Part shown: piece after piece, positions 4,525 to 11,462 of the stretch
Numbering within the stretch: position 1 is the first letter of the stretch
Layout of the letters: each line of letters begins with the position of its first letter
Assembly: GCA_003247575.1 (NCBI GenBank)
Contig: QJZC01000025.1
Span: 6,498-70,497, forward strand
Origin: Pseudomonadota bacterium
GTDB lineage: Bacteria; Myxococcota_A; UBA9160; SZUA-336
DNA: 64,000 nucleotides
Direction of reading: 5' to 3'
Program-made: the position numbers and the translations under genes
Notes under the pieces: model-generated
What the model saw: the letters and a program-made list of their open reading frames with translations, nothing else
Database searches by the model: none
What the model was told of the DNA's origin: nothing

Positions 4525-4800
4525 CTACGCTAGGCTACCCGCGAGGCTCCCCGGCCCCTGTAGCGGCTCCAATGCCCCCACGAGATCAGCGAGCCGTGCG
4601 ACGTCCAGTGAGGTCTCGAGGTCGAAGTGGACCACATGCTTGAAGCGGCCGGTGCGCTTCACTTGCCTGGCCAGAGTCGTCTTGCCGACCTGACGCGCTC
4701 TCACGACCGCCACCAGTGGAAGGCCCGTTGCAGCTTCTCGACTCGGGCCATTTCTGGAGGCAGCAACTCCATTTGTGAAATGCAGGAGTCTATCTCCTAA
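4525..4800 (-). pseudogene. N-terminal remnant (~90 codons) of an AAA_14/DUF4143-family ATPase. It is truncated after the Walker A region and has no proper start.
   Basis: 'LPLVAVVRARQVGKTTLARQV...HFDLETSLDVARLADLVGALEPLQG' matches the AAA_14 N-terminus (GPRQVGKTTL ... YFDLEDP..L). It is followed directly by a stop at 4525. The upstream frame opens after a TGA with no ATG/GTG/TTG before the P-loop. It abuts the GC drop of the island. Confidence 0.5.
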
Positions 4801-5096: not shown

Positions 5097-7292
5097 GTGG
5101 CAATCCTCGCGCTGAGTTCGGCCTGGGCAGGGCAACCTTCCGTTAGCCTACGAAGCCTAAGGGAATACCTGCTGGAGAATCTGCTCGCCGTCCTGCCCGA
5201 AGAAACACGCTCCGACTACTGCCTCATCCCCTATGTGCGTCATGTATTCGAAAGCCCGACGGACATCCCCGGGGGAGCCGGAGACAGGATCGGCATTCCG
5301 AATCGAGCGCCCACCCACTTCTGCTTTTCGGCAAGCGACGAAACCCTGCAATCCACGTTCGACACACGCATCGGTGAGTGCGCGATCAAGGGCTTCCGCA
5401 CCCTCCCATCGGTGCTCGACTCTCTCTATACCCCCAAGCAGCCCGACGCTCCCGCCCCGCTGAGCATCGCAATTACTCTGAGCTCGCCAGACGCCCCTAG
5501 TACCGACCGGAACCCTCCTCCTGGTGCGCCGCTCGATGCCCGGTTCCATGCCGAGCTGAGGATTCCCCGAAGCGGCGCCCTGGAGCAAGCATTGCGCGAT
5601 GTCAAGCAGATGTCCGATGTCGACGTATGGCACGGACTCTTCGATCCCAATCGAAGCTTGTACCAAAACCTGCACCTACACGCTCAGCAACTCTGCGAAG
5701 CTTTCGAGATCTCGCCAGGAATCATCGTTTATCAGTCCATCGTTGCGGCTATGTTCGATCAGATTCAAATCGCTTCCGTCTCTAGTAGCCTAGTGCACGC
5801 ACTGACGCTGTTCACTCGTTCGAGCGATCCTCTCAGCTTCGCAACTGGGGCGGTTCTCCTCTCAGCACACGCTGTTCGCAGCGGCGAGCGTCTCGAACTT
5901 GTCCGTATGCTGGAAGACGTGCACCAGAAGCTGTGCTCTCGTCCCGTCCGGCGGGATGTGCCGACGCCTGGTGTTCCTTCCTTCTCCGACACGGCCGCAC
6001 AGCAGATTCGCAAGCTTGAGGCGGTAGGTGAGCCGCCGGGCGATCAGCTGCGCGGCCCACCTTGGTCTATTTGCGAAACCATTCGCGATACGATGTGCAG
6101 ACTGGCGGGAATCGCAGAGGGAGACGATTCACTCGCGCGTCCGAGAACGCACGAAGGCGCGCGTCGCGACCCTATCGCGATGAGTGCGTTCCGGTTCCTT
6201 CATGCGTGCTCTGCCTTCTGCGACACGCGCTCGGAGGGAGTAGAGCTCGAATTCGGCTTCATGCTCGCGAACCCATTCTTGGTGCGGTATTGGCCAGGAG
6301 AGCGCCCCATTCCAATTGGCCGACTCAAGGACGGGGAGTATCAGCCGTTTCAGCTTTCTGCGCTATTGGGCCAGATTCCGGCGATCGAAAACCCGCGTCA
6401 ACGTTGCATCGCATTTCCCTACGGGGACACTCGCCTGGGAGACTCCAGGGCTCCATGTCCTGCCTATGTCATCAATCTCACTGACTTCCAGGAAGCGGTG
6501 GTCAGCTGGCCCGAGGGTAGGCTCTGGTCGTCGACTGGGGGAATCTATGCCTATCTCACCCATCACTATCCGTGGTCGATCGCGGCTCTCGTTGGTCCGG
6601 GATCACAAGTGCGTGTGTTCTGTGGCGGCCAGGTGGTCGCGTTTCGCGACGGGCGCGGTTGGCGATGTCGTGGCGACCCCGTTGCAGAATTCACCTCAGA
6701 AAAAATCTTGAGCGCTCGGGAAGCGAGACGCCTAGCACGCGCGCTGGAAGTCGCGAGTCAGCTCTCGCCGATCCTTAGAGCGACCGGTAGAGGCGGCCTG
6801 CTGGTCTACGCCGAGCAAAGGAGGTACCCCCCACCGAGTGGCTCGAACGGATCCCATGCCCAGGCTCCCCAGTCGGGCCTCTATCTACACACGCTTCATA
6901 ATGGCGAGCCTATGCGGCTCAACGGCCAACCCTGGCTCTCGGGCCGGAGCCTGCTCCGTCTTGACGCGGACTCGGAAGATTTCATCATCCGCTACGACGT
7001 AGCGCGCCTCTTGCTTCGCGCCGCCAAGATCGACGGGGCGGTATGCCTGAGCGAGGGAGCATCCGACGCCTACGACTGCCGGGTGCTCGACTTCGCCCAG
7101 TACCTGACGATCCACGATGCATCGGTTCCGATCTTCGATGCAGCCGGAGCGAAGCGGGCCACCGCTGAGAAGTTCACACAGTTTGCAGGCAGAGGAAGCT
7201 TCGCCATCGCGGTGTCGTCAGACGGCCCGATCAATGTCTACGTCGGAGGCGCCCGCTCCCCTAAACGGTGCTTCAATGAGGTCGTCAACTAA
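5097..7292 (+). CDS. Hypothetical 731-aa protein with a C-terminal divergent DisA_N/DAC (diadenylate-cyclase-like) domain; rest unknown
   Basis: GTG start with an AGGAG RBS 8 nt upstream. Residues ~612-722 align by eye to the DisA/CdaA DAC core: 'LLLRAAKIDGAVCLSEG' vs 'LYELAKMDGAIILSDSG' (DGA motif kept), and 'GAKRATAEKFTQFAGRGSFAIAVSSDGPINVYVGG' vs '[34 protein letters not shown]' (RHR replaced by KR-A). It lies in a ~55% GC island. Confidence 0.65.
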   Translation: MAILALSSAWAGQPSVSLRSLREYLLENLLAVLPEETRSDYCLIPYVRHVFESPTDIPGGAGDRIGIPNRAPTHFCFSASDETLQSTFDTRIGECAIKGFRTLPSVLDSLYTPKQPDAPAPLSIAITLSSPDAPSTDRNPPPGAPLDARFHAELRIPRSGALEQALRDVKQMSDVDVWHGLFDPNRSLYQNLHLHAQQLCEAFEISPGIIVYQSIVAAMFDQIQIASVSSSLVHALTLFTRSSDPLSFATGAVLLSAHAVRSGERLELVRMLEDVHQKLCSRPVRRDVPTPGVPSFSDTAAQQIRKLEAVGEPPGDQLRGPPWSICETIRDTMCRLAGIAEGDDSLARPRTHEGARRDPIAMSAFRFLHACSAFCDTRSEGVELEFGFMLANPFLVRYWPGERPIPIGRLKDGEYQPFQLSALLGQIPAIENPRQRCIAFPYGDTRLGDSRAPCPAYVINLTDFQEAVVSWPEGRLWSSTGGIYAYLTHHYPWSIAALVGPGSQVRVFCGGQVVAFRDGRGWRCRGDPVAEFTSEKILSAREARRLARALEVASQLSPILRATGRGGLLVYAEQRRYPPPSGSNGSHAQAPQSGLYLHTLHNGEPMRLNGQPWLSGRSLLRLDADSEDFIIRYDVARLLLRAAKIDGAVCLSEGASDAYDCRVLDFAQYLTIHDASVPIFDAAGAKRATAEKFTQFAGRGSFAIAVSSDGPINVYVGGARSPKRCFNEVVN

Positions 7293-7350: not shown

Positions 7351-8475
7351 GTGACTCCCACCAAACCACCTCCCCAGAAAAAGAATGTCAGACGGACATC
7401 CAAGGGGAACGCAGCTTCCGGAGATGGACAAGAGCAGAAATGGATGACTCTGGAACAACAGAGTGACCTTCGGATCTTCATTAGCCACAAGGAGCAGAAC
7501 TCCGGGTACGCAGACGTGCTGTCACAGCATCTCAAGCTGTGGGGACTCGAAGGCGCCCAGATTATGCATACATCGGGCCCCAAGAGCCAAACGCAGGGTC
7601 CCGCGATCGGAGACGAACTGCTCGGCTTTCTGCGGGAGTTCCTGTGGGAATGCAACCTGGTCATCTACATCTACACCCACGCCAAGTTAAACTGGGAATG
7701 GTGCAACTATGAGCTGGGCGTAGCCGAGGATCGAAACACGCCAGCACGAATCGTGATCCTACAGATCTTCGAGGACGAACCCTCCGTACATCGTGATCTG
7801 CGCAGAATTCAGCTCGACAACGATCAAGACATACTGGACTTCGTGTTCGATTTTCATCGAATGCCGGATTTCTTCAAAGGTCTCCCAGGCTACTGGCAGC
7901 GCGACGACGAAACCCTGCGTCTCAATGCGAACGCGTTGATCGAAGCGCTCCGGGACGAGAAGGAGAAGGACCGCCTCGCCGAGGGGATCGAGCGAGAGGC
8001 CCGTTGGGGCTGTTTCCAACTGGGCATCGGCGGCGAGATTCTAGAACCCCTCCATGCTCGCTGGGACAAGGCTCTGACCGACGAGCGCGAGGCGATGCAG
8101 GAGGATCGGCGAGCGACGCTACGAGACAATCTCATCGTGACCGAGCGCGAGGGGTCCGGCCTCCACCACTTCGGGCTAGAGGGAGAAGGCAGCCGTATCC
8201 CCATCAAGCAACGATGGTCCGTCGGAAAGCTGGAATCGGAGTGGCGGAGCATCGTCCGGGTCCATCCTCAGGACTCCTGGCTGAACGAGCTACTCGACGA
8301 GATCTGGAGCTTTCTCGTCGGGCGGGCTAGACCGCTGCGGCTGAGGGGCTACCCCAGTGGTCAGCCTCACGTGTGCTTCGCTCCAGTGGTTACACATTGT
8401 GATCGGCACACCGATGGCAGTTGCGTGTTCAGTGTGGCGGTCTACACGTTTCGCGACGATCCCCCTATCGCATAG
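7351..8475 (+). CDS. TIR-domain protein (N-terminal TIR, C-terminal ~200-aa domain of unknown function)
   Basis: 'RIFISHKEQNSGYADVLSQHLKLWGL' (beta-A/alpha-A) and 'IGDELLGFLREFLWECNLVIYIYTHAKLNWEWCNYELGVAE' (the S..S.WC..E motif with the catalytic Glu at ~7711-7713) are diagnostic of bacterial TIR domains. GTG start at 7351 with a GGAG upstream. An alternative ATG at ~7444 sits just before the TIR. Confidence 0.7.
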   Translation: MTPTKPPPQKKNVRRTSKGNAASGDGQEQKWMTLEQQSDLRIFISHKEQNSGYADVLSQHLKLWGLEGAQIMHTSGPKSQTQGPAIGDELLGFLREFLWECNLVIYIYTHAKLNWEWCNYELGVAEDRNTPARIVILQIFEDEPSVHRDLRRIQLDNDQDILDFVFDFHRMPDFFKGLPGYWQRDDETLRLNANALIEALRDEKEKDRLAEGIEREARWGCFQLGIGGEILEPLHARWDKALTDEREAMQEDRRATLRDNLIVTEREGSGLHHFGLEGEGSRIPIKQRWSVGKLESEWRSIVRVHPQDSWLNELLDEIWSFLVGRARPLRLRGYPSGQPHVCFAPVVTHCDRHTDGSCVFSVAVYTFRDDPPIA

Positions 8476-8791: not shown

Positions 8792-9640
8792 ATGTCCGCG
8801 CCCACTCGCATTCGGCTGCTCGCGATCGACGTCGACGGGACGCTCGCGATCGAGCGCGACGTCATCTCCGCGCGAACGCGGGCGGCCCTGCACCACGCCC
8901 ATGACGAAGGCCTACAGCTCGCGATCGCGACCGGCCGGCGTTACCGCACGACGCAGAGGATCCTCGACTCCCTGGGTCTCGCCCTCCCCTTCGTGTGCCT
9001 CGGCGGAGCGCTCGTAAAGCGGCACGATCATTCGACTCTAGCCACACAGAGCCTCCCCGGCCCAGATGCGGAGCAACTGATCGAGCTCGCCCGCGAGGTC
9101 GGCGTCGCTCTCGTCGTCCACCACGACACCCAGCTCGCAGACCCACACGACTTCTTGATCGACGATGTCCCCACCTGGTCGTCCTCGGTCGCCGCATATC
9201 ACGACCTCTGGCGCCAGTATGCTCGCACCGGAGATGCGGTCGCCGAAGTCCGCCGGCGCGACGATGTATTGATCTTGAGCGCGTTCTGTGGCGAGCAGGA
9301 GGCTCGGTTGCTGGCCGACTCCGCTCACAGGCTGTTCCCCGGCCGCATCGTCGCGACCGTCGTTCCAAACCCGAGCGACTCCCATTGGTACTGCGAGCTC
9401 GCGCACGCGCAGGTCTCGAAGTGGTCGGGACTCGTCCACCTGACGACCGATCTCGGGATCGAGCTGGATCAGGTCTGCGCCGTGGGCGATCAGGTCAATG
9501 ATCTGTCGATGCTTCGCGGCGCGGCCATTGGTGTGGCCATGGGGAACGCACCCGAAAGCGTACGCGCAGCCGCGGATTGGGTCACCTCGCGCCACGACGA
9601 AGACGGGCTGGTGGGGGTAGTCGAGCGACTACTTCGCTGA
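8792..9640 (+). CDS. HAD-superfamily hydrolase, Cof-like (IIB)
   Basis: 'LLAIDVDGTL' motif I, 'IATGR' motif II, and a C-terminal 'GDQVNDLSMLRGAAIGVAMGNA' motif. Confidence 0.8.
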   Translation: MSAPTRIRLLAIDVDGTLAIERDVISARTRAALHHAHDEGLQLAIATGRRYRTTQRILDSLGLALPFVCLGGALVKRHDHSTLATQSLPGPDAEQLIELAREVGVALVVHHDTQLADPHDFLIDDVPTWSSSVAAYHDLWRQYARTGDAVAEVRRRDDVLILSAFCGEQEARLLADSAHRLFPGRIVATVVPNPSDSHWYCELAHAQVSKWSGLVHLTTDLGIELDQVCAVGDQVNDLSMLRGAAIGVAMGNAPESVRAAADWVTSRHDEDGLVGVVERLLR

Positions 9641-9683: not shown

Positions 9684-10445
9684 GCTCTCCTGTCGACCCG
9701 CATAGCGATAGTGACCCGTGATCGGATAGTCGAAGAGCATGTCCTCGAGCCTCGGGCCCTCGCCGATGTTGTGCACGATCAGGGGCCGCTCACCATCGCC
9801 CGAGCGCCGATCGGAAACGATGCCGATGTGCGGCCGGTGGCCACCGACGGTCCACGTCACCAGGTCACCTGCCGCGTAGATGTCGGGATGATCGCTCACC
9901 GCCAGAGACTCCCCTCGACGCATGAACAAGACGCGCAGATTGGGCACACGCCGATGATCGATGTTGGGATCCGGCGCTTCGAGCCCCCATAGATTCGGGA
10001 ACGCCGAGAAGTTCTCGAGCATCTCCTCGTGCACATCGCGCTGCAGATCGATCCCCAGCGAGCGATACGCCCGGATCACGACGTCTGTACACACACCGAG
10101 ATGCGCGGGCACGTCTCCGCCCGGGTAGGGAATGCGGAGGTAGCGCCCGTCGTAGCGCACCTCTGCCTTGGTTCTCTCGAGAGCAGCCTCAGCCAGACGC
10201 ATGCCGAACGCCGAAGCCATCCGGCTCGGATCCGGCTCCGCATTCGAGTGCGGCGCGAACAGCCACACTGCCAGCCACAGGCACCCGATCGCTGCGATTC
10301 TCGGACTTCTCCCGCACCCCACTCCAGAGCCTCCCCGTCCGCTGTCCACCAAGTCCATCCCTGAGCGCCCTATCGGGCGGAGGGTGGGCGACCTGGAGCT
10401 GGCGAGAGCCAACCTCACGAGCGACGTCCGAGGCCGTGCGACCAT
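9672..10445 (-). CDS. DUF1287-family protein (YijF-like), probably exported
   Basis: 'VRYDGRYLRIPYPGGDVPAHLGVCTDVVIRAYRSLGIDLQRDVHEEM...WGLEAPDPNIDHRRVPNL' resembles DUF1287. A hydrophobic N-terminal segment is present. The true start may be the internal ATG near 10358. Confidence 0.55.
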   Translation of the reverse strand: MVARPRTSLVRLALASSRSPTLRPIGRSGMDLVDSGRGGSGVGCGRSPRIAAIGCLWLAVWLFAPHSNAEPDPSRMASAFGMRLAEAALERTKAEVRYDGRYLRIPYPGGDVPAHLGVCTDVVIRAYRSLGIDLQRDVHEEMLENFSAFPNLWGLEAPDPNIDHRRVPNLRVLFMRRGESLAVSDHPDIYAAGDLVTWTVGGHRPHIGIVSDRRSGDGERPLIVHNIGEGPRLEDMLFDYPITGHYRYAGRQESASR

Positions 10446-10481
10446 TCACTTGGGCCGACACGCTCTATACTCACGTGAGAT

Positions 10482-11462
10482 ATGGCTCGCGATTCGACGC
10501 AGAAGGCACTCGACCGACTTGCAATTCTCCGAGATGCTCCGACCAGCGCAGAGCTGATCCGAGCACTCGAGAGCCTCTTGATCAAGGGATCGGGCCCGGT
10601 CGTGGCCTCGGTCGCGAGACTCCTCGCGGCGCGCGAACTACGCGAGCTCGAGAACGCTCTGATTCGCTCATTCGATCGCTTTCTGGGCCCAGGCCCTAGC
10701 AGGCTGGACCCCTTGTGCATCGCAAAGGAGGCGATCGTGAGGGCTCTGGTCTCGCTCGAGACCGGGATGGTCGCGAGTGAGCTGTACCGGAAAGGGAGCC
10801 TTCACGTTCAACCGGAGGCAACCGCTGATGGAAGAGTCGATACGGCCGCCGAGCTACGCGGGATTTGTGCCGAGGGACTGGTCCTCGCCGGCACCCACGA
10901 TCTCTGGCTGCTCCTCGCGGACCTGCTCGCAGACCCGGAAGTAGCTGCCCAGATCGGAGCCATCCGCGCGGTCGCTCAAACCGGGAATCCCCATATGGGT
11001 GCACCACTGCTGCGCCTGCGACTCGGCTCGGCAGACGCGGACTCGAGAGTGCCTGCCGAGTGTCTATCCGCCTTGATCTCGCTCGATCCGGTGTCGAATC
11101 TAGAGTATGTCGCGGCACGCCTCTCTCACCCGAATCCAAACCTCGCAGAGGGTGCCGCCTTCGCGCTCGGCGAATCGAGAAGCCGCGAGGCTGTCGATCT
11201 GCTTGGGACCTGGCTCGAAGGCTGGATGGACCCTGATCTTCGCCGAGTGGGCTACCTCGCGCTCTCCATGCTCCGGCTGGACGAGGCGACCTCGCTGCTT
11301 CTGCGCGAGCTGGATGAGGCCCCCATCGCGCACGCCGAGCTCGCGCTTCGGGCGCTCACCGTCGCCCAGCCGACGGAAGCCGTGAAACGTCGAATCGAGA
11401 CCGCTGTAACCGCACGGGGAGACGCCGGGCTCGAGAGGCTGCTCGCGGAACTGGTCCCCTAG
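10482..11462 (+). CDS. HEAT/PBS-lyase-type repeat protein
   Basis: Repeated helical 'A.ALG..g...AvdaL' units; no catalytic motif seen. Confidence 0.5.
   Translation: MARDSTQKALDRLAILRDAPTSAELIRALESLLIKGSGPVVASVARLLAARELRELENALIRSFDRFLGPGPSRLDPLCIAKEAIVRALVSLETGMVASELYRKGSLHVQPEATADGRVDTAAELRGICAEGLVLAGTHDLWLLLADLLADPEVAAQIGAIRAVAQTGNPHMGAPLLRLRLGSADADSRVPAECLSALISLDPVSNLEYVAARLSHPNPNLAEGAAFALGESRSREAVDLLGTWLEGWMDPDLRRVGYLALSMLRLDEATSLLLRELDEAPIAHAELALRALTVAQPTEAVKRRIETAVTARGDAGLERLLAELVP

Follow-up and report, generated by a model that had tools for sequence, protein, structure and literature searches.

SpbK, the TIR enzyme of Bacillus subtilis ICEBs1 that cleaves nicotinamide adenine dinucleotide (NAD+) in abortive infection (PDB 9phb), becomes active only once its non-TIR domain has docked onto the portal of a phage; the TIR domains then cluster head to tail, and this clustering forms a composite NAD+ site (PMC12847820). 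ThsB proteins of Thoeris systems bind a phage structural (capsid) protein directly (PMC12578639). Among 32 tested TIR systems of E. coli, 12 are antiphage, including single-protein systems, and the stand-alone TIR-II, V, VI and IX need the conserved residues of the TIR active site for this activity (PMC11350192). In TIR-SAVED, TIR-STING and TIR-APAZ (SPARTA), the TIR NADase (NAD-cleaving) activity is switched on through assembly driven by the attached non-TIR domain. Here we have analysed a TIR gene in a 64,000-nucleotide stretch of DNA, called the window below, from a Pseudomonadota bacterium (assembly GCA_003247575.1, contig QJZC01000025.1, positions 6,498 to 70,497). The predicted protein joins a TIR domain, probably a catalytic one, to a C-terminal domain that appears to be undescribed. 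Residues are numbered according to the version of 374 amino acids (aa), counted from the GTG at 7351, and the coordinates of all features are collected in Table 1.

SpbK resembles the window protein in several respects. It is the best profile match, the best PDB sequence match and the best structural match of the TIR domain, and its catalytic Glu is aligned with that of the window protein. In both cases a single gene stands without a conserved partner, and a non-TIR domain is attached via a linker. On the other hand, the sensor of SpbK, a four-helix bundle of 94 residues, is N-terminal, while the extra domain here is C-terminal, with ~200 residues modelled as a helix and an alpha/beta part; the two show no detectable similarity. 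In addition, the TIR domains share just ~14% identity when aligned by structure, the SpbK match is restricted to the TIR part, and no mobile-element context has been seen here. Because of the opposite domain order and the unrelated sensor, the window protein falls outside the SpbK family.

As to Thoeris, all 11 aligned members of the family match ThsB profiles, but neither the window gene nor any of its relatives has an effector of the ThsA type (SIR2-SLOG, TM-Macro or another) beside it, so that this is not a Thoeris system. ThsB proteins are also mostly ~200 aa long and are not known to carry this C-terminal domain. For TIR-SAVED, TIR-STING and TIR-APAZ, the likeness lies in the architecture of TIR plus attached domain, but a Foldseek comparison with PDB chains has detected no SAVED, STING, APAZ, Macro or SLOG fold here, and therefore the protein is not assigned to any of the three. 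A cyclase or Argonaute partner gene is also absent. The E. coli TIR-II, V, VI and IX proteins differ by their descriptions, which mention TPR, ATPase or a short TIR, and the present domain is unreported there. As far as sequence matching can tell, the C-terminal domain family is undescribed, and no curated library examined covers it.

Profiles and the structural model together indicate a SpbK/ThsB-type TIR domain at residues ~37–172. In the window protein, Pfam TIR_2 (PF13676) matches aa 42–157 with E=3.5e-5 and 24.7 bits (gathering score 28), and the threshold is passed by several relatives of the same alignment (P0009, 54.7 bits; P0006, 38.1; P0008, 33.6; P0003, 30.6). Among the PADLOC models, SpbK matches with 3.6e-8 and several ThsB models with 4e-5 to 5e-3, one of them at 4.3e-5; both types are matched by 11/11 aligned family members, with best values of 1.7e-12 (ThsB) and 1.7e-11 (SpbK). 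The closest PDB sequence match is again SpbK (E 0.19). The full-length AlphaFold model, which was built on an 11-sequence alignment (mean predicted local distance difference test score, pLDDT, 80.4; predicted template modelling score, pTM, 0.67), has five strands and five helices in TIR order, with the 'IFISH' motif at aa 42–46 and strand beta-D, 'RIVILQ', at aa 133–138. When this model was compared with the PDB by Foldseek, the SpbK TIR filament 9phb came first (E=7.7e-5, prob 1.0), followed by the TIR domains of plant RUN1 and Roq1 and of animal MyD88 and MAL. The assignment is modest from the single sequence; it becomes firm because the relatives and the structural model agree.

The first-pass annotation of this stretch had already pointed to a TIR protein with a conserved Glu in 'WEWCNYELG', and the alignments bear this out. 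In the phmmer alignment, 'WCNYELG' stands opposite 'YCLNEMG' of SpbK, which places E121 opposite E192. In SpbK this stretch includes N191, E192, G194 and W197, and E192 is one of the residues placed at the NAD+ site in a model and replaced by alanine (PMC12847820). We have taken a Glu of helix alpha-C that corresponds to SpbK E192 and SARM1 E642 as the mark of a catalytic TIR, and E121 occupies this position. E121 and the Gly that follows it in the motif are invariant in the 11 sequences of the family alignment. Invariance of the catalytic Glu and Gly points to retained catalysis, and the protein is probably an NAD-cleaving TIR enzyme.

Behind the end of the TIR domain at about residue 172, a region of 202 aa (residues 173–374) remains. 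No match to it has been found in Pfam, NCBIfam or PADLOC, nor in a PDB sequence search with the single protein, in agreement with the earlier description of the C-terminal ~200 aa as uncharacterised. Even among weak Pfam matches up to E 10, compared over ten members, none was consistent for the region, and a PDB search with a profile of it gave nothing better than E 0.1, which was a designed helical protein. The boundary, however, had been set ~45 residues too early in the first-pass annotation: DRNTPARIVILQ, from which the unknown part was said to start, corresponds to aa 127–138, that is, TIR strand beta-D, and it is followed by strand beta-E and helix alpha-E before the TIR domain ends.

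The models suggest what this region looks like. Modelled alone by AlphaFold, the C-terminal part reached a mean pLDDT of 77.4 and a pTM of 0.70, and the same elements are present in the full-length and the separate models (pLDDT ~77–80). Their modelled order is an 'FFxG' turn, a long helix, a strand, two helices, a strand, a loop, two helices and a long beta-hairpin; the loop, which holds 'HFG', is poorly modelled. As the two models are concordant and predict neither disorder nor a common repeat, the C-terminal ~200 residues are, on the modelling, a real folded domain consisting of a helix plus a compact alpha/beta part, in keeping with the distinct domain that had been postulated. The linker helix, which carries the conserved L196 and L200, exceeds a pLDDT of 90 only in the model that includes the TIR domain, and this suggests that it packs on the TIR. 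When the C-terminal model was searched by Foldseek, neither PDB nor BFVD yielded a significant neighbour, and no PDB chain came in at E<0.1. A PAS/LOV-like fold was considered and is unsupported (best template modelling score 0.32–0.49, probability ≤0.2). The modelled fold is apparently an unrecognised one.

The conservation of the domain was assessed over 36 members. Positions conserved in at least 80% of them are F174, F175, L196, L200, W219, F274, G275, W298, W310 and P345, of which the last six from W219 onwards lie in the domain core; a further one is a Trp in the family and Leu331 in the window protein. Nearly all of these residues are aromatic or aliphatic, or else Gly or Pro, and all polar ones fall below 80%. 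R218, H273, E313 and E317, which are seemingly invariant in the ten closest sequences, are among the latter in the 36-member set. The lack of polar residues conserved at this level argues against a strictly conserved small-molecule pocket, and conservation of this core type, aromatic and structural, makes a scaffold or sensor more likely than an enzyme. The domain is acidic (isoelectric point about 4.4–6.6 in 9 of 10 members), and no membrane-like segment was found in it. Mean pairwise identity is 39% for the TIR domain, 27% for the linker and 30% for the C-terminal core; that is, the C-terminal domain evolves faster than the TIR, as far as these alignments tell. The pattern fits a structural module with a surface that is free to vary.

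The family has been collected by searches of different sensitivity. A word-indexed search with the full protein against 5.8 billion proteins returned nothing besides itself, while an exhaustive phmmer search with aa 165–374 alone against 1.84 billion cluster representatives returned 10 relatives (E 2.5e-32 to 6e-4, 24–40% identity). In 10/10 of these, a TIR_2 domain lies directly ahead of the matched region. A C-terminal profile run against the 5.8-billion protein set likewise returned only TIR-plus-domain proteins. Extra members, about 25 beyond these ten, were obtained from scans of species-representative genomes and metagenome contigs, where local profiles recognised about 26 locus-encoded members, each with the TIR immediately followed by the C-terminal domain. 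Since TIR motifs served as seeds of these locus scans, the latter are biased to TIR fusions; the phmmer search with aa 165–374 is free of that bias. The idea that the domain might also be fused to other effectors has thus found no support, since each relative found has the same TIR subtype directly in front, and the phmmer search yielded no other architecture at the available sensitivity.

The members come from at least six phyla, with Planctomycetota, Verrucomicrobiota, Acidobacteriota, Alpha- and Gammaproteobacteria, Cyanobacteria and Actinomycetota represented, and share 23–38% identity across them. They include Phycisphaerales, Planctomicrobium, Verrucomicrobia, Thermoanaerobaculia and Pyrinomonadaceae as well as Limibaculum, Pelagimonas (cultured strain DSM 26923), Arenicellales, Woeseiaceae, Crocosphaera and Egibacteraceae. 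As sampled by these sequence searches, the family is rare, patchy and widely scattered in bacteria.

Several variations of the architecture have been observed. In four relatives (P0003, P0004, P0006 and P0007), an N-terminal segment of ~45 aa resembling a helix-turn-helix (HTH; weak HTH_23 / HTH_Tnp_1 matches) precedes the TIR and occupies the place of the 31-aa extension of the window protein. P0009 has two tandem TIR domains and then the C-terminal domain. An extension of ~140 aa past the C-terminal domain is found in a Woeseiaceae protein (L013, 9668–11371) and at L016, L011, L055 and L060; in the former, it gives a marginal CBS-domain match (E 5.7e-5; 23.8 bits, with the cut-off at 24). 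Tandem paralogues are present at L050, where a fragment of a C-terminal-domain gene (1–261) lies just upstream of the TIR gene (487–1497). Three TIR open reading frames (ORFs) are located within 3.5 kb in the unicellular cyanobacterium SU3 (L041, 4627–7964), and clustered or tandem paralogues likewise at L027 and L105. In a metagenome-assembled genome of an uncultured bacterium (L004, 9767–10924), a relative is split in two frames (ORFs 9767–10570 and 10574–10924), which reflects either a frameshift in a pseudogene or a fault of the assembly.

Beyond the core family, about 60 loci from soil and water metagenomes encode TIR proteins of ~300–380 aa whose C-terminal region is comparable in length and has no annotation (e.g., L106 5263–6315, L021 10001–10900 and L064 4095–5027), from Burkholderiales, Rhodocyclaceae, Thermoleophilia and others. 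No Pfam domain was found behind the TIR in them. A jackhmmer search on the local set ties them to the second half of the domain, with first inclusion at 13–23 bits, and a profile-profile comparison of the two by hhalign gave P=0.002 and a probability of 13%. Homology of their C-terminal region to the second half of the domain is probable on these comparisons.

Based on the above analyses, we tentatively propose that the window protein is a stand-alone sensor-effector, encoded by a single gene and working along the lines of SpbK: its C-terminal domain would gate both the clustering of the TIR domains and the cleavage of NAD+. At rest, the linker helix and the C-terminal alpha/beta domain would block the head-to-tail TIR contacts needed for the composite NAD+ site. 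A trigger, most likely a protein made in phage infection, would bind the C-terminal domain, and the trigger-bound copies would gather together. The clustered TIR domains could then cleave NAD+ to ADP-ribose (ADPR) and/or a cyclic ADPR isomer, and the cell would be arrested or die before the phage cycle is completed, that is, by abortive infection. In favour of this proposal, the C-terminal domain appears exclusively in TIR fusions among the relatives found. The patchy spread at low identity, the tandem TIR of P0009, the tandem paralogues at L050, and the position of the window gene in a low-GC patch next to an ATPase remnant (described below) are also on its side. The same goes for the retained catalytic Glu, the concordant models of a folded C-terminal domain, its lower mean identity relative to the TIR, the missing conserved neighbour, and the precedents of SpbK and of single-protein TIR defence. 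We rate it as possible, somewhat short of probable, because the analysis demonstrates neither immunity nor gating.

A number of observations weigh against it. The gating, ligand-sensing or oligomerisation role of the C-terminal domain is drawn by analogy only with the described systems, and the Pfam TIR score of the window protein itself is under the gathering cut-off. PADLOC gave zero defence matches on the 7 flanking ORFs of the window. Over about 70 loci of relatives, only about 5 of 141 neighbours match PADLOC models, these being a methyltransferase with Vsr, one patatin-like effector, a subtilase and a mad2-like protein. Plasmid and phage collections contain no homologue of the window protein; viral contigs yield weak TIR-only matches, and a viral scan with the C-terminal alignment was empty. 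That is, enrichment near defence genes or on mobile elements, which would be expected of a defence gene, was not found. In addition, operon-like spacing with trehalose synthesis genes in some relatives is also in line with a metabolic role.

No conserved neighbour exists across the 21 core loci or the 76 wider loci; neighbours common to several loci occur only among near-identical contigs, and in a set of 54 immediate neighbours even the most frequent Pfam families have two occurrences each. The gene travels alone, and there is no guilt by association with defence genes. The missing conserved neighbour is evidence on the context of the gene, not on the sufficiency of a single gene. Two arrangements with close spacing (1–3 nt) were noticed. 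In Thermoanaerobaculia (L007, 908–4653, and L051), a GT20 synthase gene and a trehalose phosphatase gene precede the TIR gene, and in Crocosphaera (L009, 9995–12434, and L052, L054), the TIR gene is followed by a GT20 synthase gene.

These arrangements lead to another explanation, which we consider unlikely: the protein would be a non-immune TIR enzyme that hydrolyses or converts NAD(P)+ or a related nucleotide when its C-terminal domain senses a physiological cue such as osmotic or carbon status, and would be a housekeeping regulator, not a phage sensor. The neighbours of the relatives are overwhelmingly housekeeping genes, trehalose-6-phosphate synthase/phosphatase genes lie within 1–3 nt in two phyla (L007/L051 and L009), and in the window a Cof-type sugar phosphatase gene begins 316 bp downstream. 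The additional CBS match in one relative and the N-terminal HTH-like segment in several would also suit a regulator. However, on a rough estimate chance alone would give about one single-copy family shared among all neighbour pairs, and the trehalose coincidence hardly exceeds this; a sugar-metabolism theme among the neighbours, which we have considered, was rejected as the enzymes are generic apart from GT20 and trehalose phosphatase. The CBS match stays below its cut-off, a housekeeping gene would not usually be so rare, so patchily distributed and so low in identity, and no conserved polar pocket residues were found. A bolder form of this explanation, with the C-terminal domain as a new fold tying TIR NAD+ cleavage to the physiological state of the cell and not to phage, is suggested by the trehalose-gene spacing in Acidobacteriota and Cyanobacteria, the CBS/HTH gains and the near absence of defence neighbours; we regard it as improbable. 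If true, it would place a bacterial TIR in metabolic or stress signalling.

Somewhat less likely than a metabolic regulator is that the C-terminal domain serves as a constitutive oligomerisation or stability module, or that the protein is a non-catalytic TIR scaffold or adaptor that lacks a regulated NADase switch. The core-type aromatics that make up the conserved residues of the domain fit this, and so does the linker helix with conserved Leu that is modelled confidently only together with the TIR; P0009, moreover, duplicates the TIR and not the C-terminal domain. Against this stand the catalytic Glu and Gly, which are invariant in the family, and the toxicity that a constitutively clustered, active TIR NADase would have.

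The surroundings of the window gene bear on a third alternative. The gene lies inside a patch of lower GC content at about 4.5–8.5 kb (0.57–0.61, compared with 0.64–0.69 around; overall, 0.59 against 0.65). At the left edge of the patch, the ORF of the AAA_14-type ATPase remnant (Walker A 'GKTT') looks like a truncated pseudogene. The upstream ORF of 731 aa is an orphan: in 5.8 billion proteins it finds only itself, and it has no match at threshold in Pfam, NCBIfam or PADLOC. Its last ~80 aa (nt 7020–7250) give a lone, sub-threshold, in-register match to DAC/DisA_N (E 0.018, 15 bits), with KRA in place of the RHR motif of DAC, and by this match they resemble a degenerate DAC (diadenylate cyclase) domain. 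A trypsin-like stretch at aa 410–493 (E 0.011) is without the GDSGGP serine context and was taken as probably a chance match. The orphan was also tried as a conserved partner, and tblastn against the loci of all relatives was empty. Since no counterpart adjoins any relative, the orphan is probably outside the TIR unit. Downstream of the TIR gene are the gene of the Cof-type HAD sugar phosphatase (8792–9640), that of a DUF1287 protein and that of a HEAT-repeat protein. No tRNA, convincing flanking repeats, or informative promoter or terminator sites were detected at the window locus, and the low-GC patch and the ATPase remnant are its sole island-like signs.

A private two-gene, Thoeris-like pair, in which an ADPR-derived signal of the TIR would be read by the degenerate DAC-like C-terminus of the orphan, is suggested by the shared strand, the short gap, the common lower GC, the ThsB-type profile matches of the TIR and the fact that the sole Pfam match of the orphan is an in-register DAC, but it is very doubtful, as the orphan has no homologue anywhere and none beside any relative, no relative has a conserved partner, the DAC match is far under threshold with its RHR motif replaced, and SIR2, SLOG, Macro or another known ThsA module was not found in the flanking ORFs.

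The coding status of the window gene is clear. The GC1/GC2/GC3 pattern (GC content at the three codon positions) is of the coding type in this frame throughout, with 0.69/0.45/0.74 in the C-terminal half, and ORF 7351–8475 is coding over its full length. Public annotation (P0001) starts at the in-frame ATG 7444, which gives 343 aa. As a GGAG lies 8–10 nt ahead of both GTG 7351 and ATG 7444, either may serve as the start, and the N-terminal extension may be untranslated.

Table 1 Features of the TIR gene and of the adjoining upstream part of the window (positions within the 64,000-nucleotide stretch).
Feature	Position	Strand	Remarks
Whole ORF	7351..8475	+	374 codons from GTG 7351, then stop
Optional N-terminal extension, 31 aa	7351..7443	+	Lys/Pro-rich, isoelectric point 10.6, weaker coding statistics
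TIR domain, aa ~37–172	7459..7866	+	Pfam TIR_2, PADLOC SpbK/ThsB, AlphaFold, Foldseek
E121 codon, putative catalytic Glu of the TIR NADase site, motif WCNYELG	7711..7713	+	Alignment with SpbK E192
Linker, aa 173–216	7867..7998	+	Conserved 'FFxG' motif, then long helix at aa ~186–206 (modelled)
C-terminal domain core, aa 217–369	7999..8457	+	Modelled as strand-helix-helix-strand-loop-helix-helix-strand-strand
Upstream orphan ORF, 731 aa	5097..7292	+	Ends 58 bp before the TIR ORF, same low-GC patch
AAA_14-type ATPase remnant, 62 aa, Walker A 'GKTT'	4525–4713	−	E 6.6e-4, N-terminal fragment

The switching of bacterial TIR enzymes is understood in few cases, such as SpbK with the phage portal and ThsB with the capsid. 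With the sensor-effector that we tentatively propose, the present family would add a compact, partner-free TIR carrying an undescribed module of ~200 residues as a candidate for trigger recognition. Should the domain recognise no such trigger and answer no metabolite either, the family would be one more TIR fusion to an unknown domain, and such fusions are common. If it does answer a metabolite, TIR signalling would extend past immunity in bacteria.

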